DNA of 64,000 bases from Clostridia bacterium (GTDB lineage Bacteria > Bacillota > Clostridia > TANB77 > CAG-508): the NCBI GenBank assembly GCA_017456555.1, contig JAFTJF010000007.1, positions 3,257 to 67,256 on the forward strand, given 5' to 3'. A model generated the notes under the pieces. That model saw only the letters and a list, made by a program, of their open reading frames with translations. It made no database searches and was not told where the DNA came from. Positions 6,489 to 32,567 of the stretch are shown here, one piece after another. How positions within the stretch are numbered: the stretch's first letter is position 1; each line of letters opens with the position of its first letter. The position numbers and the translations under genes were made by a program.

Positions 6489-7874
6489 CTATTGTTTTTC
6501 TACAATTGTTCCTTCTTTGCTATCTTTAACAGTATAACCATTTTCTATTAAAATATCTCTAATTCTATCTGATTCAGCCCAATTTTTATTTGTTCTTGCT
6601 TCATTTCTTTCTTGAACTAATTTTGTTATTTCTTCAGGTAGAACATTTTCTTGTTTTTGATAATTTTTTAAATCTAATCCTAAAACTTCATCAAATTTTA
6701 ATAAAAGATTTTGTAATTTTTTTGATTTATTAGGATTTTTTACAACATCCCAAACAACACTCATCGCAACCGGCATATTTAAATCATCATTAATTGCTTC
6801 TAAGAATTTTTCTTCATATTCTTTTATAGCTTCATCAGAAACATCTTCATTTCCTTCTGCGTGTTTTAAATATCCTTCTCTTAATCTATTTAATGCTACT
6901 TTTGCAGCATCCATAGCTTCAAATGTAAAATTGATTTGAGCTCTATAGTTTGATGTAAAATTAAACATTCTATAAACTAATGGCTCGTATCCTTTTTCTT
7001 CTAAGTCTTTTAAAGTATATAGATTATTTAAACTCTTAGACATTTTTCCACCATTTATTTGTAAGAATTCAACATGCATCCAATAATTTGCTGGTGTTTT
7101 TCCTGAAAAACCTTTACTTTGTGCAATTTCATTTTCATGGTGAATTGGAATATGATCAACTCCACCAGTGTGAATATCAAATTGATCACCCAAGTATTTA
7201 TACCCCATAGCAGAGCACTCTAAATGCCAACCTGGATAAGATTTTCCAAAGAAAGAATCCCATTTCATAATATGATTTTCTGGTGCTTTAATCCAAAGAG
7301 CAAAATCTGAAATATTTCTTTTGCTTTGATCAAATTCTACTCTTGCACCAGCTTTTTGTTCATCAACATTTCTATTTGATAACACACCATATTTATCTAG
7401 TTTTGATGTATCAAAATAAACTGTATCTTCTGTTTGATAAGAAAATCCATTTTCTATGATTTTTTTAACATATTCTTCCATAACATCAATATGTTCTGTT
7501 GCTCTAGCAATAATCTCTGGTCTGTCTACATTTAATTTATCAATATCAGCTAAAAATGCATCCATATAAAATTGTGCTATTTCAAATGGATCTTTGTTTT
7601 CTCTTTTAGCTGCTTTCATCATTTTGTCTTCACCTTCATCAGCATCTGATACTAAGTGACCAACATCAGTGATGTTCATAACATGTTTTAAATTATAACC
7701 ATTATATTTTAAAACTCTTCTTAAATTATCCATAAATAAATATGCTCTTAAGTTTCCTATGTGAGCAAAATAGTAAACAGTAGGACCACATGAATACATT
7801 CTTATCTCTTTCTCATTTAGAGGTTTAAACTCTTCTTTTTTTCTTGTAAGCGTATTAAAAATTTTTATACTCAT
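6489..7874 (-). CDS. cysS: Cysteine--tRNA ligase
   Basis: CGPTVY, HIGN, PGWHLECSAM, KMSKS. Confidence 0.97.
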   Translation of the reverse strand: MSIKIFNTLTRKKEEFKPLNEKEIRMYSCGPTVYYFAHIGNLRAYLFMDNLRRVLKYNGYNLKHVMNITDVGHLVSDADEGEDKMMKAAKRENKDPFEIAQFYMDAFLADIDKLNVDRPEIIARATEHIDVMEEYVKKIIENGFSYQTEDTVYFDTSKLDKYGVLSNRNVDEQKAGARVEFDQSKRNISDFALWIKAPENHIMKWDSFFGKSYPGWHLECSAMGYKYLGDQFDIHTGGVDHIPIHHENEIAQSKGFSGKTPANYWMHVEFLQINGGKMSKSLNNLYTLKDLEEKGYEPLVYRMFNFTSNYRAQINFTFEAMDAAKVALNRLREGYLKHAEGNEDVSDEAIKEYEEKFLEAINDDLNMPVAMSVVWDVVKNPNKSKKLQNLLLKFDEVLGLDLKNYQKQENVLPEEITKLVQERNEARTNKNWAESDRIRDILIENGYTVKDSKEGTIVEKQ

Positions 7875-7946
7875 ATGTTCATCTCCTTTACTTTTTTATA
7901 ACACTCGAGCGGATTTTTAGGTCCGCTCTTATTTTAATTAAATTAA

Positions 7947-18293: not shown

Positions 18294-18334
18294 AAAAAAG
18301 AGTATATAAATCTCGATAATTTATATACTCTTTT
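18294..18334 (-). terminator. Intrinsic terminator of the NRPS-HK-RR operon
   Basis: aaaagagtatataaat...atttatatactctttt inverted repeat. Confidence 0.8.
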
Positions 18335-18364: not shown

Positions 18365-19432
18365 TTAACATGGAAATTTTGCTCTTATTTCATTTATTTT
18401 ATCTAATTTATTTTCTAAAATGTTTAGCATAACATTTGCAGCTTCTGGATCGAATTGTGTTCCTATCCCTTCTTTAATTTGATTTTTTACATATTCTAAA
18501 TCCATTTCATCTCTATAAGAACGTTTTGATGTCATTGCATCAAATGCATCTGCAACACTTACAATTCTTGCTAAAAATGATATTTGATCTCCTTTTAATT
18601 TTTGTGGATATCCATTTCCATCATATCTTTCATGGTGTGAATAAATAATTGGAACAATATCTCTAAAAATTGAAGATGTTGATACAATTTGTTTTCCTAT
18701 TGATGGATGTTTTTTCAACTCATTGTATTCTTCATCTGTTAGTTTAGATGGTTTTAATAAAATTGTATCTGATATACCTATTTTTCCAATATCATGGAAT
18801 AATCCACCAATTCTTAATGTTGCAATATCTTTATCATAAAGCCCCAACTCTTGTCCTATTAAAACAGAATATGCAGAAACTCTATCTGAATGGCCTCTTA
18901 TATAAGTATCTTTTGCTTCAACTGTATATCTTAACATTTGTATTGTTTCTAAATATGCTTTTTCAATTTTATCTTTTGAAGCTTTTAATTCTTCATTCAT
19001 TTCTTTTATTGTTTGCATTTGTTCTATAGATTTAAATGCAGATTCAATAAGCAATAATAATTGATCAAATTTATCTTCTTTTTCACAATAAGCTTGAATT
19101 GATAATCTTTTTATTGTTTCTAGTGGTGGCACTAAATCCTTATGACCTGTAAGTAAAATAATATATAATTCTTTATTAAATTTTCTAATTTCTTCAACAA
19201 CAGTATCTCCATGTATTGGTGACATCATAAAGTCTAATAACATTAAATCATATTTTTCATTTTTTACTTTTTCTATAGCTTCATATGGATCTGTACATCC
19301 AACTAATGTATATCCAGAGTGTCTTAAAAATACAGATAATGAATCTATAATTCCAATCTCATCATCAACTGCTATAATTTTATAATTTTTATTTTGATTT
19401 TCATTTTCATTTTGTTGTGCTGAAAGTCTCAT
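18365..19432 (-). CDS. REC-HD-GYP response regulator (cyclic dinucleotide phosphodiesterase, RpfG-like)
   Basis: AVDDE and LLD receiver motifs; GHSDRV, LFHDIGK, HHERYDGNGYP, DAFDAMTSKRSYR; ATG 19432 after GGAGG. Confidence 0.93.
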   Translation of the reverse strand: MRLSAQQNENENQNKNYKIIAVDDEIGIIDSLSVFLRHSGYTLVGCTDPYEAIEKVKNEKYDLMLLDFMMSPIHGDTVVEEIRKFNKELYIILLTGHKDLVPPLETIKRLSIQAYCEKEDKFDQLLLLIESAFKSIEQMQTIKEMNEELKASKDKIEKAYLETIQMLRYTVEAKDTYIRGHSDRVSAYSVLIGQELGLYDKDIATLRIGGLFHDIGKIGISDTILLKPSKLTDEEYNELKKHPSIGKQIVSTSSIFRDIVPIIYSHHERYDGNGYPQKLKGDQISFLARIVSVADAFDAMTSKRSYRDEMDLEYVKNQIKEGIGTQFDPEAANVMLNILENKLDKINEIRAKFPC

Positions 19433-19451
19433 AGTATACCTCCACAATTTA

Positions 19452-21455
19452 TTAATTATTCATTGGTAAATATATTTTAAATTCTGTACCTTTGTTTGAA
19501 GTTTCAAGTTTTATATCACCATTAAATTTTGCTTTTATCATTGAATATGACATAAACACTCCAAGTCCAGTTCCTTCTTTACCTTTTGTTGTTATCATTT
19601 CTTTAAATAATTTATCTTTTATATTGTCTGGGATTCCTGGTCCATAATCTTTTACAGAAATTAAAATTTTATTATTTTCTAATTTTGCACTTAAATCTAT
19701 CGATTTATTTGGTTCCTTTTTATAAGCTTGTATAGCATTAGAAATTAAATTGTTTAATACTTGTACTAAACTATTTATATTTCCTTTTAAAATCACATCA
19801 TTGCTAACATCATTTTTTATATTTAGAGTTACTAATGCGGATTGAAGTTCGTGTTTCATTAAAATATTTGTGTGGCTAAATAATTCTTTTATAGTGAAAT
19901 CAACGGTGTCATCTCCAGATAAATTAACAGCTTGTCCTTTTACTGTTGTAATTACTTCAGACATATATGATAATTGACCTTTAATTTTTTGAAGCCAAAC
20001 TTTCATATCACTCGCAATTTCATGCATATCTTGTTCATTAACTTGTGGATTTCCAATTGATGCATCAAACTCATTTACTAAATCTGTTAGACCTGCTACA
20101 CCACCAGATATAGAGAATATTGGTGTTTTTAAACTGTGTGCAATACCACCAACCATTTGTCCTAAAGATGCTAAACGTTCTCTTTCTACAAGCATATTTT
20201 GTTTATTATGAATATCTTCTATTTGAGCATTATTTAATTTTTGAATATCATTAAATGCAACAACTAAATCTCCAATTTCATCATTTGAAACTACTGGTAA
20301 AAGAATTTCTTTTCCACTTTCATTACAAATATTTCTAAATCCTTTATGAATTTGTCTTAAAGATTTTGAAATAGATGATGAAAATATTGCTATTATTATT
20401 GCACTAATTGCAGCTAAAAATAATGCTGTTAAAACTAAATAATTTAAAGCTGTTTTAGAAAAAATATCATATAAAATTCCTATATAAACATTTCCTGTAT
20501 CTGTTTTTAATTTTATAGAACTTCCTTGAGTATCTACTCCATAGCTATCATATAATCTTCCATTATTTTGTTCAGAAATTTGAATTGTATACTCTACAAT
20601 AAAATTACTTATTTCTTCACCCTTTAGCATTTCATAAGTTTTATCTTGATTTAAAATAAATACTCTATCAGTATCATTATATAATTCAAAACCATTTGCA
20701 ATTTCTTTTATTTCAGCGTTTGTATAAACTTTTTCTGTGTCAAATTTCTCTGTTAAAATTTTATTATATACGCTATACAAAACATCTTCTTTTTCTATTA
20801 CACTTACTGAATATCCAACTAAAGCTGTAAGAATAATTGCAGCTATACAAATTGGAAATACTAGTATCATAATTCTTTTTCTTAAGCTAACTCTAAAACC
20901 AATGTCTGAACCTTCAATATATGTTTGTGTTAAAATTTCATCATATAAATTCTTTGAAAATATGAAAGACACAACACCTAACAATATTGAAAATGATGCT
21001 AATAATATTATTATTTTTGCAATCATTATACTTAAGTGGCTACCCGTTAAAGATAAAACTAGTATTGTTATTATTGATGGTGTTAAAATCTCAAACATAT
21101 AAAATTGATATGGTAGTGTTAAACATTTTTTTCTAATTAATTTTATTTGTTCTTTATCACTATATCTTTTGGTTAAAGACATTTTATACCATTTATCAAT
21201 ATCTTTTAATGCAAACTTTGTGAAAAATACGATTCCTAATACAATTACAATTCCTAAAATCAAAAATTGTGTATTAAAAGATATGTATGACATTTGAACA
21301 TCAAATGGAGTATTTATTGTTCCTGGTCCATAATTTAAAATTTTAGGTATTATCATCATCAAAATTAATATAATTATAAATGCTATAGCAGCATATCTAA
21401 AAGAAATTATATTACTTGGTGTACTATTCCATTTTATTTTTTTCTTATTTCTCAC
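19452..21455 (-). CDS. Multi-TM sensor histidine kinase with HAMP
   Basis: About 6 TMs, DEIGDLVVAFN HAMP, IAHSLKTP H-box, NLISNA, DYGPGI, GTGLG. Confidence 0.93.
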   Translation of the reverse strand: MRNKKKIKWNSTPSNIISFRYAAIAFIIILILMMIIPKILNYGPGTINTPFDVQMSYISFNTQFLILGIVIVLGIVFFTKFALKDIDKWYKMSLTKRYSDKEQIKLIRKKCLTLPYQFYMFEILTPSIITILVLSLTGSHLSIMIAKIIILLASFSILLGVVSFIFSKNLYDEILTQTYIEGSDIGFRVSLRKRIMILVFPICIAAIILTALVGYSVSVIEKEDVLYSVYNKILTEKFDTEKVYTNAEIKEIANGFELYNDTDRVFILNQDKTYEMLKGEEISNFIVEYTIQISEQNNGRLYDSYGVDTQGSSIKLKTDTGNVYIGILYDIFSKTALNYLVLTALFLAAISAIIIAIFSSSISKSLRQIHKGFRNICNESGKEILLPVVSNDEIGDLVVAFNDIQKLNNAQIEDIHNKQNMLVERERLASLGQMVGGIAHSLKTPIFSISGGVAGLTDLVNEFDASIGNPQVNEQDMHEIASDMKVWLQKIKGQLSYMSEVITTVKGQAVNLSGDDTVDFTIKELFSHTNILMKHELQSALVTLNIKNDVSNDVILKGNINSLVQVLNNLISNAIQAYKKEPNKSIDLSAKLENNKILISVKDYGPGIPDNIKDKLFKEMITTKGKEGTGLGVFMSYSMIKAKFNGDIKLETSNKGTEFKIYLPMNN

Positions 21456-21475
21456 AAGTATCCCTCCGATTAATT

Positions 21476-24400
21476 TTAAATAAAATTCACTTCTCTCATG
21501 TATTTTACTATTTTTTCTATATATTTTTTATCTATTTTTTTCCACTCTGATTTTAATAAACTTAAATATTTTTTTGTATATTCTGATTTTATATTTACTG
21601 AGAAATTATAGTCAATAGAAATATTTGAGTTTTTTGTATTATTTATATCATTTATAATTCCAAATAAAATTTGAGCATTTTTACTTTTTGAAATTTCAAC
21701 AATTCTTTCTTGAAAATCTTTTTCTGAAACTTTTTCTATATTAATTCCGAAAGAAACTAATACATCAATTATTTCTTTTATTTCAACAAAATTGTGATTA
21801 TACAAATGAAATACTTTATTATCTGCTATTTTATTTTTTGCAAGATTTATTATTGCTTTAGAACAAGTATCTACTGGAGTAAATTCAATTTTTTGTTCCA
21901 ACATTTCTTCAGATACACAACCTAATACTACCATAGATTTTATTCTTGTATAAAAAGCATTTTCATTTATATTTTCTTGGAATTTTCCATCTAGAGCTCT
22001 ACCAGATAAAATTCCAATTCTATGAATTTGTGCAACTAAGCTTTTTTCCATATATTCTAAAACAATTTTTTCTGCTTCAAATTTACTATTAACATATACA
22101 TTGTCCATATAATTTTGTCCAATATATAAATTATTTTCAGAAAATTCGACATTTCTATTATCTTGTTTTACTAAATAATTTCCAGAAACACTTATTGATG
22201 ATATATGTATAAATCTTAGCTTATTTTCATAAGAAAATTCTGCAACATTTCTTGTTCCCTCAATATTTATGGTTTTAAAATCTTCATAATTGCCATAATG
22301 TTTTACTCTTGCTGCTGTATGGATTACTGTTGATACACTATTTTTTATTTCTTTTATTATATTTTCATCAAGACCGATATTTTTCTCAGAAATAGAGCCA
22401 TCAACAACCAATACTCTTTTATCTAAATAATTTGACAAATCTTCATCAAAATAGAATTTATATTGTTCAATTAATCTATCTTTTGGTGACTTATCTTTTT
22501 TACCTCTAACTAAACAATATATTTTTGAAGTTGTAGTTTTTAAAATTTCATTTAATAAATGAATTCCAATAAAGCCATTAGCTCCTGTTAAAAATACATT
22601 TCCTAAAACTTCATTATCTAAATCTTTCTTATCTAGTACTTCTGATAATTCATCTATATTATGTTTAAATTTATCTGGTATTTGAGCATCTTGTTCTTTA
22701 TAAGTCGAATTATTACTGTCAATATTTTCAGCTAAAGTTCTTATTGTTGTATATTTATAAAAATCTTGTGTATTCAAATTATAATTATATTGAAGTAATA
22801 ATGTTTGAACTTCTATAATTCCTAAAGAGTCTAATCCAAGAACCATAAATGGAGTATCTATATCGACCTCTTCAACTTCTAAAGTTTTACATATAATCTT
22901 AGATAACGTTTTTTCTGTTTTTGTTTTACCTTTTTCTATATTTGATGTTTCAAGTTTTATTTTTGGAAGTTTTTTTCTATCAAGCTTACCATTTGGAGTA
23001 AGCGGAAATTTATCAATTTTAAAATATACTGCTGGTATCATATAGTTAGGCAAGTCTTTTAGTAAAATTGATGTTATTTTATTTGTATCTTGTTCTTCTT
23101 CTGAAATATAATAGCAAATTAAATATTTTTGATTTTCATCTGCAATTACAACATTATTTAATATTTCAGGAATTTGGTTTATTTTATTTTCAATTTCTTC
23201 AAGTTCAACTCTATAACCACGAATTTTAACTTGGAAATCTGTTCTTCCCAAATGAACAATTTCTCCACTATTTGTATAATAAGCTAAATCATTTGTATTA
23301 TATATTATTTGATTTTTCTCAAATGGAGATTTTACAAACTTTTCTTTTGTAAGTTCTTCTCTATTTAAATATCCATTTGATACACCATCTCCACCAATAT
23401 ATAATTCACCTGGTGTATATGTTGGAAGTAAATTTTTATCTTTATCTAATATATAACATTTTGTATTTGCAATCGGTTTACCAATTGTAATCATATTTTT
23501 TGATTTTATTTTTTTAATAGTTGACCACACTGCTGTTTCTGTTGGCCCATACATATTAAATATATTTGCTTTTGTTAAGTTTTCAAATTTTTCTACAAGC
23601 CCTTTTGGAAGCCCTTCACCACCAACCATTATATCTGTCATATTTTTAATAAATTCTGTTGTATTTTTATTTTCTAATAATGCTTTAAATCTTGATGGAG
23701 TTGTTTGAATCATTGTTACATTATTTTCTAAACATACTTTATTTAATTTTTCAGAATTATTTTGCTCTAACTCATTTGCCAGTACTAAAGTCATTCCAGA
23801 AGTTAAAGCTCCCCAAAATTCTAAAACAAATATATCAAAACATATTGTTGTTATTGAAACCATTACTTTTTCAGGAGCAAATTTAATTATTTCTTTTGTT
23901 CCTAGTAAAAAGTTATTTATATTTTTATGTTTTAGCATAACTCCTTTTGGTTTCCCAGTTGAACCAGAAGTATATATTAAATAAATTAAATCTTCTGGTT
24001 TTATACTTTCTTCAACTTCAACATTTTCTCTATTATAAGCAGTTGACTCTAAGCCAATATCAACTTTTTTAATATTTAATTTTTCATTTATAATTTTTTG
24101 AGTTTTCTTATTAGATAATAGCATTTTAGCACCACTATCTAATAACATATATTCTATTCTCTCTTCTGGATATTCTGGATCTATTGGAAGATATGCCCCA
24201 CCAATTTTTAATATTGCTAAAAGTCCAATTGCAAGTTCTAAAGAACGATTAACACAAATACCTATAATATCTTTATATTTTGCACCTTCTAGTTTTAAAC
24301 TATTAGCTAAAATATTAGATTTTTCATCTAATTCTTTATATGTCATACTTCTATTTTCAAAAATTACAGCTTCTTTTTCTGGGTATTTTTTTACCATTTC

Positions 24401-25786
24401 TTTAAAATATTTTATAACATTTTTGTTTTTATTATATTTTAAAGTTGTATCATTAAAATCCACTAAAAGCTTTCTTTTTTCGTTTTCAGTAATTATTTCA
24501 ATATCTTTAATTAAAACTTTATCAGTATCTAAAATTCTATTAATCATTTCCATAATTCTAGAATGCATATTTTTTACATATTCATCAGAATATTTCAATT
24601 TTTTAAAATCATAACATACTGTTAATATTCCTTCTTCATCTAAATCTAAAAATTGTATAGTCATATCATCAGTTACATTTTTATTAAATGCCCATCTTGT
24701 TGAATATTTGTATTCAGTTTCGTTGTTAGCTTTTGTTAATTGATATGAAAGAACAATGTTATATAAATTTGGAACTGAAGAATCTTTTTTTCTTAGCTCT
24801 TCTAATAACATTTGATATGGATATTTTTGATGTCTAAGTAAAGAAACAGTATCTTTAGAAATTTCATTTGCAAAACTAATAAAGTCTGTATCTGGTTCCA
24901 CATTTACTTTAAAAGGAACAACATTTACAAACATTCCTACAATGTTTTTTTCTTTAAAATTAGTTCTATTTAATATTGGAGTACCAATACTAAATTCCTT
25001 TGAATTAATGATTTTTGAAATATAAACCGAATAAACAGCCATAAGGAAATTAAATACTGTAAGCTTATTTTTATTACAATATTCATTAATTAATTTCATT
25101 TTGGCTTTAGGAATAGAGAAAGTTAATCTTTCTCCAAGGCATGAAAATTCTGTATTTTTCTCAGAACTATCTGAAGGTAAAATTGCTGGATTTATATTAT
25201 TTGAAAATAACTCATTCCAGTATTCTTTATCTTTTAAAAATTTTGAACTATTAAAATATTCTTTTTCATTTTCTGCATAATCAATATATGAAAATTCTAC
25301 ATCTTCACTAGCAATATTATTTTTTATATTTGAATATGCTTTCATTATTTTTCTACAAGTTAAACCTAAAGTCCAACCATCAGAAAGAATGTGATGAATG
25401 TTTAATAAAAATCCACCAGCACCATTTTCAAATCTAAAAATTTTAAATTCATATAAAGCTGACTCAAATAAAGAAAAATGTTTTGCCATAAGCATATTTT
25501 CAATTTGATCAACTTCTGATTTATCTTTTATATCTATAATTTCAATATCTGGAATTGTTTTCTCAGATATAAATTGTTTTACTTCATTTGCTTTTTGAAT
25601 TAATTGAATATGAAAAACATCATTTTCTTTTATTACTGTTTCTATTGCTTGTTTCAAAGCATCAAAATCAAGAACAGAATCTATAATTGCTGTTCCACAA
25701 ATATTATTAACAGAAGTATTTTTATAAAACTTTTCTGTAAGTAGTATTGATTTTTGTGGATATGTTAAACTAACTAATTTTTTCAT
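21476..25786 (-). CDS. Single-module NRPS C-A-T-R (terminal thioester reductase), predicted Gly-activating
   Basis: C: HHILSDG; A: YTSGSTGKPKG, YGPTE, QVKIRGYRVE, NGKLDR; T: LGLDSL; R: TGANGFIG, YVNSK. Confidence 0.93.
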   Translation of the reverse strand: MKKLVSLTYPQKSILLTEKFYKNTSVNNICGTAIIDSVLDFDALKQAIETVIKENDVFHIQLIQKANEVKQFISEKTIPDIEIIDIKDKSEVDQIENMLMAKHFSLFESALYEFKIFRFENGAGGFLLNIHHILSDGWTLGLTCRKIMKAYSNIKNNIASEDVEFSYIDYAENEKEYFNSSKFLKDKEYWNELFSNNINPAILPSDSSEKNTEFSCLGERLTFSIPKAKMKLINEYCNKNKLTVFNFLMAVYSVYISKIINSKEFSIGTPILNRTNFKEKNIVGMFVNVVPFKVNVEPDTDFISFANEISKDTVSLLRHQKYPYQMLLEELRKKDSSVPNLYNIVLSYQLTKANNETEYKYSTRWAFNKNVTDDMTIQFLDLDEEGILTVCYDFKKLKYSDEYVKNMHSRIMEMINRILDTDKVLIKDIEIITENEKRKLLVDFNDTTLKYNKNKNVIKYFKEMVKKYPEKEAVIFENRSMTYKELDEKSNILANSLKLEGAKYKDIIGICVNRSLELAIGLLAILKIGGAYLPIDPEYPEERIEYMLLDSGAKMLLSNKKTQKIINEKLNIKKVDIGLESTAYNRENVEVEESIKPEDLIYLIYTSGSTGKPKGVMLKHKNINNFLLGTKEIIKFAPEKVMVSITTICFDIFVLEFWGALTSGMTLVLANELEQNNSEKLNKVCLENNVTMIQTTPSRFKALLENKNTTEFIKNMTDIMVGGEGLPKGLVEKFENLTKANIFNMYGPTETAVWSTIKKIKSKNMITIGKPIANTKCYILDKDKNLLPTYTPGELYIGGDGVSNGYLNREELTKEKFVKSPFEKNQIIYNTNDLAYYTNSGEIVHLGRTDFQVKIRGYRVELEEIENKINQIPEILNNVVIADENQKYLICYYISEEEQDTNKITSILLKDLPNYMIPAVYFKIDKFPLTPNGKLDRKKLPKIKLETSNIEKGKTKTEKTLSKIICKTLEVEEVDIDTPFMVLGLDSLGIIEVQTLLLQYNYNLNTQDFYKYTTIRTLAENIDSNNSTYKEQDAQIPDKFKHNIDELSEVLDKKDLDNEVLGNVFLTGANGFIGIHLLNEILKTTTSKIYCLVRGKKDKSPKDRLIEQYKFYFDEDLSNYLDKRVLVVDGSISEKNIGLDENIIKEIKNSVSTVIHTAARVKHYGNYEDFKTINIEGTRNVAEFSYENKLRFIHISSISVSGNYLVKQDNRNVEFSENNLYIGQNYMDNVYVNSKFEAEKIVLEYMEKSLVAQIHRIGILSGRALDGKFQENINENAFYTRIKSMVVLGCVSEEMLEQKIEFTPVDTCSKAIINLAKNKIADNKVFHLYNHNFVEIKEIIDVLVSFGINIEKVSEKDFQERIVEISKSKNAQILFGIINDINNTKNSNISIDYNFSVNIKSEYTKKYLSLLKSEWKKIDKKYIEKIVKYMREVNFI

Positions 25787-25819: not shown

Positions 25820-25847
25820 ATTATATCTTAACTTCCTTAAAAATCAA
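25820..25847 (-). promoter_or_regulatory. Putative sigmaA promoter of the NRPS operon
   Basis: TTGATT-16bp-TATAAT on the - strand. Confidence 0.55.
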
Positions 25848-30962: not shown

Positions 30963-31538
30963 TTATTCTTCCTCAATTGGTCCTACTATTTCACCAATTT
31001 GTTTTAAAACTTCTTCAACATTTTCTATATTTTTAATTTGGAATCCGTTTAAATATCCAGAACCTGGAATAACTCCTTTGGCATAAACACATAAGTCACC
31101 AAATCCAAATTTCTTTTGTCTACGGGTTTGGAAATATCTTACATCAGCAATTTCTGAATATTTTACAACTTTAGTTACATCCATAAATAAAAATTTAAAA
31201 GTATATACAGCTTTTTTCTCATAAAAAACTGCTTTTGTAGCCATTGCTAATCTTTTATCTACAAAAAGCACTAGTCCAATAACTGCTGCAAATATTAATA
31301 CAACAGCTAGTGCCTCTAAAAATCCACCAGCAGACACACATAATATTATTGAAAGTATCGCTAAAATGATTAATTCTGTGCATTTTGATATTTCATAATT
31401 AATAGAATATTTTCTTTTTAATTTTAATTTTTCGTTAGTATCTTTTTTTAAATCTTCTTCCTCTTGGAATTCTTTGTAACAGTTAGTACAAATATCTCCA
31501 TCTTTTTTTAATTTAGCTCCACAAATTCTACATTTCAT
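30963..31538 (-). CDS. Zinc-ribbon, 2-TM, bacterial PH-like domain protein
   Basis: CxxC...CxxC, two TMs, 'I.DV...QT..QK.FGFGDL' typical of bPH domains. Confidence 0.6.
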   Translation of the reverse strand: MKCRICGAKLKKDGDICTNCYKEFQEEEDLKKDTNEKLKLKRKYSINYEISKCTELIILAILSIILCVSAGGFLEALAVVLIFAAVIGLVLFVDKRLAMATKAVFYEKKAVYTFKFLFMDVTKVVKYSEIADVRYFQTRRQKKFGFGDLCVYAKGVIPGSGYLNGFQIKNIENVEEVLKQIGEIVGPIEEE

Positions 31539-31558: not shown

Positions 31559-32567
31559 TTAAAAAATTCTTAAAATATCTTTATAAGACACATAAAGTGA
31601 TAGTAAAATTAATAGTAAAAAGCCAGCTGATTGTATCCCTAATTCTATTTCTTCTTTTAGTGCTTTTCCTCTTATTCCTTCAATAATTAGTAAAACTATT
31701 CTTCCTCCATCTAATGCTGGAATTGGCAAAAGATTTGTTACTCCTAAAGATAAGGAAATTAAACATAATAAATATATAAAATTATATATTCCATCAGATT
31801 TTACTACTATTTCAGAAATTCCGATTGGTCCTGTCATTTGATCGATTTTTATATTTCCAGTAAACAATAATTTTACTGATTCAAACATTGATTCAACAAA
31901 ATTTACTGTTTCCCAAAATCCATAATATAATTTTTCTTTCCAAGTTGCATCAATTAAAGCAACTTGAATACCTAATATATAAGTATTTTCTTCGTATTCT
32001 GTTGGTTTTACATTGAATTCTAATTCTTCGCCATTTCTTTCAACAACCACTTTAACTTCACTTCCATCAGATCCATATAAAGCACTTGATATATCTGATT
32101 TTAATCTAATTTTCTCATCATTTATTTTTATGATTTTATCACCGAATTTCAATTCCTACTAAATTAGCTTGTGCTTCTGGAATAATCTCACTAACTGTTG
32201 TTGAAATATTATATCCAGAAAAGATTGATAAGAAAAAGAATACAATAATCGCAAAAATAATATTTACTATTGCACCTGCTGCAACAATTATTATTCTATG
32301 AAGAACTTTGGCTTTATTAAATGAGCCTTCATCTTCACTTCTTTCTTCTTCTCCAAGCATTTTTACATATCCACCAAAAGGAATACATCCAACAGTATAT
32401 ACAGTTTCTTTTCCCTTTTTAGTAAATATTTTTGGTCCAAATCCTATAGAAAATTCTTCAACTTTTACTTTGAAAAATCTTGCTGCTAAGAAATGACCTC
32501 CTTCGTGTATAAAAACTAAAAATCCTAATAAAAATATTATTTTAAAAGCGTTAATTAAAAATGTCAA
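31559..32567 (-). CDS. rseP: RIP metalloprotease RseP, split by a +1 frameshift at CGG 32144-32142 (about 335 aa if rejoined)
   Basis: HEGGH in the 5' part; PDZ 'GIEI|GDKIIKIN' across the junction; NLLPIPALDGG in the 3' part; sequence ATT-C-GGT-GAT. Confidence 0.9.

Follow-up and report, generated by a model that had tools for sequence, protein, structure and literature searches.

The window analysed here is a 64,000-nucleotide stretch of contig JAFTJF010000007.1 from an uncultured Clostridia bacterium (assembly GCA_017456555.1, 1.67 Mb, 88.5% complete). Three co-directional open reading frames (ORFs) on its minus strand, 21476..25786 (1436 aa), 19452..21455 (667 aa) and 18365..19447 as called, encode a predicted nonribosomal peptide synthetase (NRPS), a predicted sensor histidine kinase (HK) and a predicted response regulator (RR) joining a receiver domain (REC) to an HD-GYP domain. 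An earlier reading of the sequence, referred to below as the original prediction, had proposed that this trio forms a circuit in which the NRPS makes a small-molecule signal, the kinase receives it and the regulator acts on a cyclic dinucleotide. The features of the locus are as follows.

25820..25847, minus strand: candidate sigma-70-type promoter, TTGATT-16 nt-TATAAT (10/12 positions), 34 nt 5' of the NRPS ATG
21476..25786, minus strand: predicted single-module NRPS of 1436 aa with the domains condensation (C), adenylation (A), carrier (T) and reductase (R), from Pfam and NCBIfam
24464-25777 (C), 22964-24406 (A), 22727-22909 (T) and 21479-22600 (thioester reductase), minus strand: domains of the NRPS
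20205..25786, minus strand: variable cassette, comprising the entire NRPS and HK codons 1 to about 400-417, from blastn edges of congeneric pairs mapped onto the window
19452..21455, minus strand: predicted sensor histidine kinase of 667 aa, from Pfam, hydropathy, AlphaFold2 and a GGAGGG ribosome-binding site
20376-21455 (sensor with six transmembrane (TM) helices and an extracytoplasmic PDC-like domain), 20247-20384 (HAMP) and 19455-20243 (dimerisation and phosphotransfer (DHp)/catalytic core), minus strand: parts of the kinase
18365..19432, minus strand: predicted REC-HD-GYP response regulator, 355 aa from ATG 19432 (REC 19052-19378, HD-GYP 18443-18934)
18296..18334, minus strand: intrinsic-terminator-like hairpin and U-run, 31 nt past the RR stop codon

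Arrangement and predicted functions of the three genes

The NRPS and HK frames are separated by 20 nt, and GGAGGG precedes the GTG start codon of the kinase. The start of the regulator most likely lies at ATG 19432 and not at TTG 19447, because GGAGG is found 7 nt upstream of this ATG and residues M1 and R2 are invariant in 30 homologues; the gap between HK and RR is therefore 19 nt. The gaps of about 20 bp described originally were thus borne out. A single promoter and a single terminator had also been claimed, and of these the terminator was confirmed. The 17-bp hairpin with its U-run (18334..18296) had a folding energy of -17.4 kcal/mol (z -5.9), and 0/200 shuffled sequences were as stable; being AT-rich, it is overlooked by a simple terminator scan and was recognised by folding against shuffles. 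Promoter-like sites numbered 90 in this AT-rich region, compared with 84.9 +/- 9.1 in shuffles, and the TTGATT-16-TATAAT element is therefore a candidate only.

As originally noted, the trio is inserted among housekeeping genes (polC and a DUF1294 gene upstream; TPR, dpaA, uppP and sortase genes downstream), and neither a transporter nor a phosphopantetheinyl transferase (PPTase) gene was found within it. No Rfam family reached its gathering score in the 64-kb window, which thus contains no recognised riboswitch, tRNA or leader. Gut-metagenome contigs from three other runs carry RR, HK and NRPS contiguously at about 95% identity, for instance a 6426-nt contig spanning 19268-25693 with 332 differences. 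Since these independent contigs hold the same order, the arrangement is not an assembly artefact. The same runs were considered as a source of alternative cassettes, which was rejected because they hold the same cassette at that identity. The genome contains one NRPS match and just two HD-GYP genes, the second of them a stand-alone HD-GYP gene, which makes chance adjacency of the trio very unlikely. This explanation was rejected on the gene counts together with the linkage surveys of sensor and regulator given below.

In the NRPS, Pfam domains were assigned as Condensation (residues 4-441), AMP-binding (461-807), PP-binding (960-1020) and NAD_binding_4 (1066-1312). The protein matched TIGR01733 at 404.8 bits, over the cut-off, and the thioester reductase family TIGR01746 at 200.9 bits (cut-off 213.35). 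The motifs HHILSDG, the DSL serine, GANGFIG (GxxGxxG) and YVNSK (YxxxK) are all present, and the His motif and the carrier serine are kept in 55/55 homologues. With the four domains in order and the motifs intact, the enzyme is predicted to be a C-A-T-R synthetase with reductive release. Its best full-length NCBIfam match was module 2 plus R of AusA (771.8 bits, cut-off 2500 bits), and the alignment to MxcG covers residues 6-1370 at 495.8 bits (equivalog cut-off 2300 bits). The C domain matched PDB chains of TycC and LgrA at scores similar to those of the short stand-alone chains 7c1h and 8f7h, which we take to be starter C domains.

The ten code positions of the A domains were taken from an alignment of 55 loci. 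The window code, DILSMGMVWK, equals DILQLGMIWK, one of the codes quoted for Gly from a survey (PMC12283262), at 7/10 positions, and its glycine-like character is suggested solely by these positions. The A domain also matched linear gramicidin synthase at 630 bits; this score is the sum over two A domains (338 + 291 bits), and the argument for glycine drawn from it was therefore rejected. In total, 20 code strings in about 12 families were read from the 55 loci, and a single genus holds 12 codes in 19 loci. Among the relatives, DFWTIGMVHK is one position off a threonine-related code quoted in the same survey (PMC12283262), and other codes include DSESTAEVCK and DIFSMAGIFK, without a match to a substrate. 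For priming of the carrier domain, PF01648 had a single match in the 88.5%-complete assembly, a 128-aa frame of AcpS size; a homologue of the PPTase that adjoins the NRPS in two relatives (loci L014 and L022) was not found in this genome. No aryl-carrier or dihydroxybenzoate (DHB) genes were found near the NRPS of the window.

The kinase showed a clear HATPase_c domain (E 1.4e-19) and weak HAMP and HisKA matches, both below cut-off. Residues H440, N569, N573, D603, G607 and G628-T-G-x-G632 (the DHp histidine and the N, G1 and G2 boxes) are invariant in 55/55 homologues, as expected of a classical two-component sensor histidine kinase behind a membrane sensor. Six hydrophobic segments were recognised, and the positive-inside rule places the N terminus inside and residues 218-338 outside the cytoplasm. 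An AlphaFold2 model of residues 1-420 (41-sequence alignment) reached pLDDT 86 and pTM 0.76, and in this model residues 217-333 resemble the PDC/PAS-like sensor domains of kinases and chemoreceptors. The matches were 3cwf_B (over residues 217-330, Z 8.6, root-mean-square deviation 3.5 Å, 105 residues aligned), 4exo (Z 8.2), 4k08 (Z 7.7) and CitA 2j80 (Z 6.5); these Z values are middling and one fold recurs down the match list, so that the domain is best described as PDC-like.

A Foldseek comparison of the sensor model with the PDB returned nothing at E <= 0.001, structure comparison gave neither a specific solved fold nor a transporter-like match for the TM bundle, and no Pfam family spans the sensor. 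Sensor matches at E <= 0.001 numbered 213 among 1.84 billion representatives, and the homologues bear generic names only. Conserved aromatic or polar residues lie on the outer face (L40, N41, Y42, F51, Y230, F285, Y289 and Y305) and would fit a common ligand scaffold combined with variable specificity residues. In two loci of one genus, L026:2652-4680 and L028:8135-10166, the kinase consists of two overlapping ORFs near the cassette boundary, with sensor halves of 444 and 464 aa and kinase halves of 238 and 236 aa; a frameshift, a gene that is really divided, or an error in sequencing could account for this.

The regulator matched HD_5 (E 1.2e-33) and Response_reg (E 8.3e-17) in Pfam, and NF053512 in NCBIfam at 204.9 bits, below its cut-off. 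Residues D23, D24, D67, T95 and K118 and the HD-GYP residues (H..HD..H..HHE..GxGYP..D) are invariant in 30/30 homologues, and the motif HHERYDGNGYP is intact. By its acceptor Asp and its metal and substrate motifs, the protein is predicted to be an HD-GYP response regulator of RpfG-like type. The nearest solved HD-GYP chains were the 3'3'-cGAMP-specific phosphodiesterase 5z7c (E 3.8e-44) and the c-di-GMP phosphodiesterase 4mcw (E 2.1e-38).

The genome also encodes a 309-aa REC protein with a GGDEF-like domain (L031:1111-2040; genome G000, contig 10), whose signature reads GGDDF and not GGDEF or GGEEF. Of the cyclase-type domains found in the genome, this one alone is plausibly active, and the protein could be the maker of the nucleotide degraded by the HD-GYP regulators. 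In a second GGDEF-like protein (L032:1312-2448) the motif is degenerate. A search for c-di-GMP-I riboswitches found nothing, its control being silent as well.

Linkage, co-variation and exchange of synthetase and sensor

NRPS homologues were found in 35/41 relatives and in 249/301 genomes of the order. Lack of synteny in relatives had been named beforehand as one outcome that would refute the original prediction. The trio proved to be conserved, in changing contexts, in five families that belong to a single order of uncultured gut Clostridia. At 20 loci fetched around NRPS homologues from the five families, a kinase adjoins the NRPS in every case (20/20), and a REC-HD-GYP gene lies inside the fetched flank at 12/20. 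The genes flanking the module vary between loci, which indicates that it moves as a unit. The kinases of these loci fall into two classes, 14 with the sensor type of the window and six with HisKA_7TM and PAS domains; locus L015 has both.

The sensor half of the window kinase (aa 1-400) was present in 112/301 genomes of the order, nearly always as one copy. Its 116 hits were placed by reference to the NRPS matches listed, and among these 76 share a contig with an NRPS: 67 directly downstream of it and five directly upstream, on the same strand, three further downstream and one on the opposite strand. The other hits comprise three elsewhere in the genome and 37 not assignable from the NRPS among the matches listed. 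Two-module NRPSs (frames of >=1900 aa) were never found in a genome with the window sensor type (0/33 among the matches listed).

Linkage was also counted from the regulator side, with loci picked by regulator similarity alone. The loci were the best 80 of at least 599 relatives, from uncultured gut Clostridia including Clostridium sp. CAG:508 (the TANB77/CAG-508 group of GTDB), and 66 of them had at least 6.5 kb of upstream sequence. Both an NRPS and a kinase were present at 56/66 loci (30 with the window-type kinase, 26 with the 7TM type), a kinase alone at 1/66 and an NRPS alone at 1/66. The tight order NRPS, HK, RR was kept in 45 of 60 complete modules.

The second sensor class (HisKA_7TM PF16927 plus PAS, kinases of 575-615 aa) was seen at L015, L021, L023-L025, L029, L030 and 26 of the loci L096-L175. 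Taking the place of the window-type sensor, it adjoins mostly two-module NRPSs, and also the single-module NRPSs of one family. Two-module C-A-T-C-A-T-R relatives occur within the same order. Two HisKA_7TM kinases stand in tandem at L023 and L029, and one kinase of each class is present at L015.

Another recurrent neighbour is a gene for an HtrA-like serine protease (Trypsin_2 plus PDZ), located divergently upstream of the NRPS at nine of the first 20 loci (L014, L015, L019, L020, L022, L026-L029) and at 27 of 60 further loci (L036-L095). The variable cassette does not include this gene, and the window lacks it; its position beside an enzyme expected to make an aldehyde deserves mention.

In some relatives the NRPS match is interrupted by stop codons (G283:C1:172078-175662, G007:C8 and G010:C1); in G283 the sensor of the neighbouring kinase is still open. 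Such loci may represent signal-null, receptor-positive variants.

Co-variation was determined in two sets of loci. The 60 loci L036-L095 had been chosen for NRPS-kinase adjacency, a selection that leaves co-variation unbiased, and they inform co-variation, not frequency. In the first set, 62 loci with all three genes were reduced to 55 by length filters (NRPS 1380-1560 aa, HK 640-710 aa, RR 330-385 aa; seven dropped), giving 1485 pairs. Mean pairwise identity was 0.38 for the NRPS, 0.28 for the sensor, 0.63 for the kinase core and 0.71 for the regulator. The identities of NRPS and sensor were strongly correlated (r 0.93), compared with 0.53 for NRPS and core, 0.46 for NRPS and regulator and 0.82 for core and regulator. 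When the regulator was held constant, the NRPS-sensor correlation remained at 0.91; the sensor-regulator correlation given the NRPS was 0.10.

Addition of the regulator-centred loci and de-duplication yielded 105 loci, 95 of which passed the length filters (73 window-type, 22 7TM-type). Comparable results were obtained for the 73 window-type loci, with r 0.92 for NRPS and sensor (partial r given the regulator 0.91), 0.85 for core and regulator, and a partial r of 0.14 for sensor and regulator given the NRPS. The survey of NRPS and kinase phylogenies suggested with the original prediction thus gave a stronger result than expected, with the sensor half alone following the NRPS. Within the sensor, the TM part correlated with the NRPS at r 0.92 and the extracytoplasmic part at r 0.87; within the NRPS, the A and R domains correlated with the sensor at r 0.90 and the C domain at r 0.79. 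The 7TM class showed weaker co-variation of NRPS and sensor (r 0.63, partial 0.62; 22 loci, with only the last NRPS module compared).

Among the 73 loci, 69 pairs were close kin, defined by regulators at least 85% identical. In 42 of them the NRPSs were less than 50% identical, and here the sensors were all at 20-33% and the cores at 68-93%. In the remaining 27, with NRPS identity of 50% or more, the sensors were at 50-99%. Sensor identity was bimodal, with no pairs at 40-50%, and core identity was unimodal. The clearest pair was L037 and L055, with identities of 100% for the regulator, 92% for the core, 25% for the sensor and 37% for the NRPS.

The edges of the exchanged block were visible at the DNA level. 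Between L039 and L047, the upstream flank is 93% identical until about 64 nt inside the NRPS gene, after which only patches of 69-74% occur; identity returns at HK codon ~417, the core being at 79% and the stretch from the regulator into the downstream flank at 94-95%. For L037 and L055, identity returns at HK codon ~413 (95.3% over 3.4 kb). L053 and L079 share 84% identity in the upstream flank as far as the NRPS start, and become similar again from HK codon ~400. These edges delimit the variable block as the whole NRPS with the kinase sensor and HAMP (~20205-25786 in the window).

It was evident that close relatives which keep the kinase core and the regulator have exchanged the NRPS together with the sensor half as a single block, and the locus is in this sense polymorphic in the manner of a pherotype locus. 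Altogether, 18 cassette types were distinguished; several types coexist in five of 12 regulator-kin groups, in one of them six, and the same types recur across different kin groups. The backbone of the window was also found with a 7TM-type cassette, at L098 and L099 (core 79% and 76%, regulator 77% and 75%).

Sensor similarity follows the adenylation code carried by the cassette rather than the genus. Mean sensor identity was 0.43 between loci of different genera with the same code (n = 113) and 0.26 between loci of the same genus with different codes (n = 185).

A proposed signalling module, its alternatives and known systems

We consider it reasonably probable that the trio is a self-contained, polymorphic module of signal synthase, receptor and effector, in which signal and receptor diversify together. 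In the proposed mechanism, the C-A-T-R enzyme would N-acylate one amino acid, possibly glycine in the window, and reductive release would yield an N-acyl amino aldehyde, which might be reduced further to the alcohol. After leaving the cell, this small lipophilic product or a derivative would act as ligand of the six-TM/PDC-like sensor of the adjoining kinase. Ligand occupancy would set, in either direction, how far His440 is phosphorylated and passes phosphate on to the REC domain. The regulator would then alter the breakdown of a cyclic dinucleotide, either c-di-GMP or 3'3'-cGAMP, and through it the behaviour of the cell. Different NRPS and sensor cassettes on a shared core and regulator backbone would give lineages private pherotypes, as in agr and ComQXPA. 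The co-variation and joint exchange support the roles originally assigned to the NRPS as signal synthase and to the multi-TM kinase as receptor, at the level of comparative genomics only.

A wider reading is put forward more tentatively, as a serious possibility falling somewhat short of an even chance. The loci may represent an unrecognised form of private-channel (pherotype) communication in uncultured gut Clostridia with small genomes. Its pheromone would be a lipo-amino aldehyde or alcohol built on a cassette-specific amino acid, its receptor a co-diversifying kinase of the 6-TM/PDC or 7TM/PAS kind, and its output the hydrolysis of a cyclic dinucleotide instead of a transcription factor.

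Several observations weigh against the proposed module. At eight of the 66 regulator-centred loci, neither an NRPS nor a kinase was found, and one of these, L100, occupies the polC/TPR site of the window itself. There (L100:2564-10542) polC-DUF1294 and RR-TPR-dpaA are kept, a 193-aa hydrophobic membrane ORF (7312..7893) replaces NRPS and kinase, and the regulator is an orphan REC-HD-GYP at the same site as that of the window. The cyclic-dinucleotide machinery of the source genome appears thin, with one REC-GGDDF protein and one degenerate GGDEF protein, and PilZ was not found in the 88.5%-complete assembly; nor was an Sfp-type PPTase. The regulator has no DNA-binding domain, and there is consequently no obvious autoinduction loop. 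All support for the module is comparative. The Mantel-type permutation on the 55-locus set gave p 0.002 (499 permutations) but ignores phylogeny, so that relatives enter as if independent, and the robust count is the 5/12 kin groups. NRPS and sensor half are, moreover, contiguous DNA, and one recombination tract could transfer both without a functional tie; the breakpoints in the kinase core may only reflect conservation sufficient for homologous recombination.

The alternative that survives best is self-monitoring by the producer, in which the kinase would sense the cell's own reactive aldehyde or lipid in the membrane, or envelope or protease stress caused by the product, and would adjust physiology to provide feedback or self-protection. 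It accounts equally well for the co-variation of NRPS and sensor, and the present data do not separate it from cell-to-cell signalling. The cluster contains no exporter, an HtrA-like protease gene stands divergently upstream of the NRPS at 9/20 and 27/60 loci, and related peptide aldehydes are described as protease inhibitors in passages of PMC8210680 and PMC10979478 that cite Guo et al. (2017). However, the protease gene lies outside the variable block and does not occur at the window locus. The PDC-like domain co-varies with the NRPS about as much as the TM part (r 0.87 and 0.92), which suits an external ligand. Furthermore, the 12 codes in 19 loci of one genus form a pattern of discrimination, whereas simple feedback needs no diversification. 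Self-monitoring is regarded as unlikely.

Alternatively, the NRPS and the two-component system may be unrelated, the former making a metabolite directed at host or competitors, such as a protease-inhibiting aldehyde, the latter responding to some unconnected cue, and the sensor half hitch-hiking as neighbouring DNA in a recombination hot spot. The contiguity of the NRPS and the 5' half of the kinase gene would allow one tract to carry both, the C domain is tied more loosely to the sensor than the A and R domains (r 0.79 against 0.90), and published accounts of related gut NRPSs are framed in terms of host protease inhibition (parts of PMC8210680 and PMC10979478). The exchanged block is nevertheless not a symmetric hot spot, because its left edge falls sharply at the NRPS start while the upstream DNA is still 84-93% identical. 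None of the 42 close-kin pairs with dissimilar NRPSs keeps a similar sensor and none of the 27 with similar NRPSs loses it, so that no mismatch occurs among 69 pairs. The pairing also outlasts relocation into new genomic contexts and inversion of gene order (kinase upstream in five loci), and sensor similarity tracks the A-domain code across genera. For these reasons a functional tie is preferred over mere co-transfer. In addition, the sensor family is tiny (213 in 1.84 billion), with an NRPS beside it wherever the neighbour is readable, and the two-module NRPSs, of which 0/33 among the matches listed share a genome with the window sensor, are accompanied by the other sensor class. Hitch-hiking is thus judged quite improbable.

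The idea that the multi-TM half is a membrane dock, exporter or flippase for the NRPS product, its co-variation reflecting contact or transport specificity, draws on the absence of a transporter from the cluster, on six TM helices that match no solved fold and on overlapping NRPS and HK frames in several relatives (e.g., L017, L019 and L024), yet it is very improbable, as the TM bundle has no transporter-like structural match, the extracytoplasmic PDC-like domain co-varies although it is unable to touch a cytoplasmic NRPS, and the half is fused via HAMP to a kinase that is intact, its catalytic residues invariant, in the manner of a receptor.

The proposed module of synthase, receptor and effector was compared with known systems. 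In the Rpf/DSF system of Xanthomonas (RpfF, RpfC, RpfG), with which the original prediction had drawn an analogy, RpfF is a crotonase and RpfG degrades c-di-GMP. The wiring is similar, since in both cases the synthase gene is accompanied by genes for a membrane sensor kinase and for a REC-HD-GYP regulator. In contrast to Rpf/DSF, the synthase of the window is an NRPS and not a member of the crotonase (enoyl-CoA hydratase) family, and its kinase is a HAMP-HisKA-HATPase protein without the REC and histidine phosphotransfer (HPt) domains of the hybrid kinase. The host is a Firmicute and the locus polymorphic. The analogy therefore holds for the wiring, and the trio, with neither an RpfF-type synthase nor a hybrid kinase, is not a member of the Rpf/DSF system. 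Among the two-component quorum-sensing systems listed in PMC8895600, RpfC-RpfG is the only HD-GYP pair.

The polymorphism itself resembles that of staphylococcal agrBDCA and Bacillus ComQXPA, where a variable signal maker and sensor combined with a conserved remainder of the kinase and a conserved regulator give rise to specificity groups. The hypervariable region of agr is placed within agrB, agrD and agrC in the relevant part of PMC10482373, and for both systems the hypervariable block is described as taking in the sensor part of the kinase along with the signal genes (PMC10482373, PMC12935306). These systems, however, signal through peptides made by the ribosome, and have DNA-binding regulators that autoinduce the operon; the signal maker in the window is an NRPS with predicted reductive release and its regulator a predicted cyclic-dinucleotide phosphodiesterase. 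On both counts the trio departs from the agr/ComQXPA kind.

With respect to the enzyme, common ground exists with the gut-commensal NRPS family of Guo et al. (2017) and with AusA of S. aureus, which are likewise reductase-terminated; what is shared with the Guo family is architecture and gut origin. The window enzyme differs from the Guo family in having one module. As summarised in PMC8210680 and PMC10979478, products of that family are (N-acyl) dipeptide aldehydes or pyrazinones, read as acting by host protease inhibition. MxcG (myxochelin) and other C-A-T-R synthetases have the same domain order as the window enzyme, but the score against MxcG was far under the equivalog cut-off and the A-domain code is glycine-like, not lysine-like.

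In CqsA/CqsS and LqsA/LqsS, as proposed for the window, a multi-TM kinase reads a small hydrophobic signal whose synthase is encoded beside it. CqsS has a six-TM topology, and LqsA/LqsS is a pair of synthase next to receptor. In the systems covered by PMC8895600, CqsS senses CAI-1, and a passage of PMC11480411 describes autoinducers of Klebsiella oxytoca that arise from a peptide-aldehyde pathway. These systems and the aldehyde-derived pyrazinone autoinducers differ from the window in their enzymes, receptors and outputs. To our knowledge, none of them is cassette-polymorphic.

In the open-access literature searched, no published description of a locus combining NRPS, kinase and HD-GYP, or of an NRPS-based pherotype locus, was found. 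The apparently new element is a pherotype-type two-component locus with an NRPS as the predicted synthase and a predicted HD-GYP output. Few biosynthetic genes of the gut microbiome are as widespread as the reductase-terminated NRPSs of its Firmicutes. The linkage of such an NRPS to a dedicated putative receptor kinase with a co-exchanged sensing half offers a testable answer as to what these enzymes do for the bacteria themselves, namely that the product is a strain-specific signal, and it names the candidate receptor. If true, this would be the first NRPS-based pherotype system and the first quorum-type circuit of a Firmicute with HD-GYP output. The native role of the widespread gut peptide-aldehyde NRPSs would then be kin or strain discrimination, with host protease inhibition secondary. 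Metagenomes would hold dozens of orthogonal pairs of small molecule and receptor with varied adenylation codes, useful for synthetic biology. As the organisms are uncultured, their social biology can at present be approached only through genomic inference.

Other features near the locus and in relatives

In two loci of one family, L012:3423-5483 and L013:14217-17875, genes for BRO-N, an SMC_N/AAA_15-type ATPase and AAA_14/DUF4143 proteins lie between kinase and regulator. Their appearance is that of an island of mobile or defence type that has been inserted. The L013 regulator is divided between a REC ORF and an HD-GYP ORF.

Many Firmicutes have dxr and proS between rseP and polC. Neither gene was found in this interval of the window, where a 191-aa ORF without a Pfam match (30963-31538, minus strand) lies between rseP and polC. 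The rseP-like M50 protease gene itself (31559-32567, minus strand) occupies two overlapping ORFs, 32139..32567 (142 aa, the N-terminal part of M50) and 31559..32152 (197 aa, PDZ and the C-terminal part of M50). The nearest relative has a single rseP-like ORF of 335 aa at the same place (L011:1089-2096), and the split is due to a frameshift in the organism itself or to faulty assembly.

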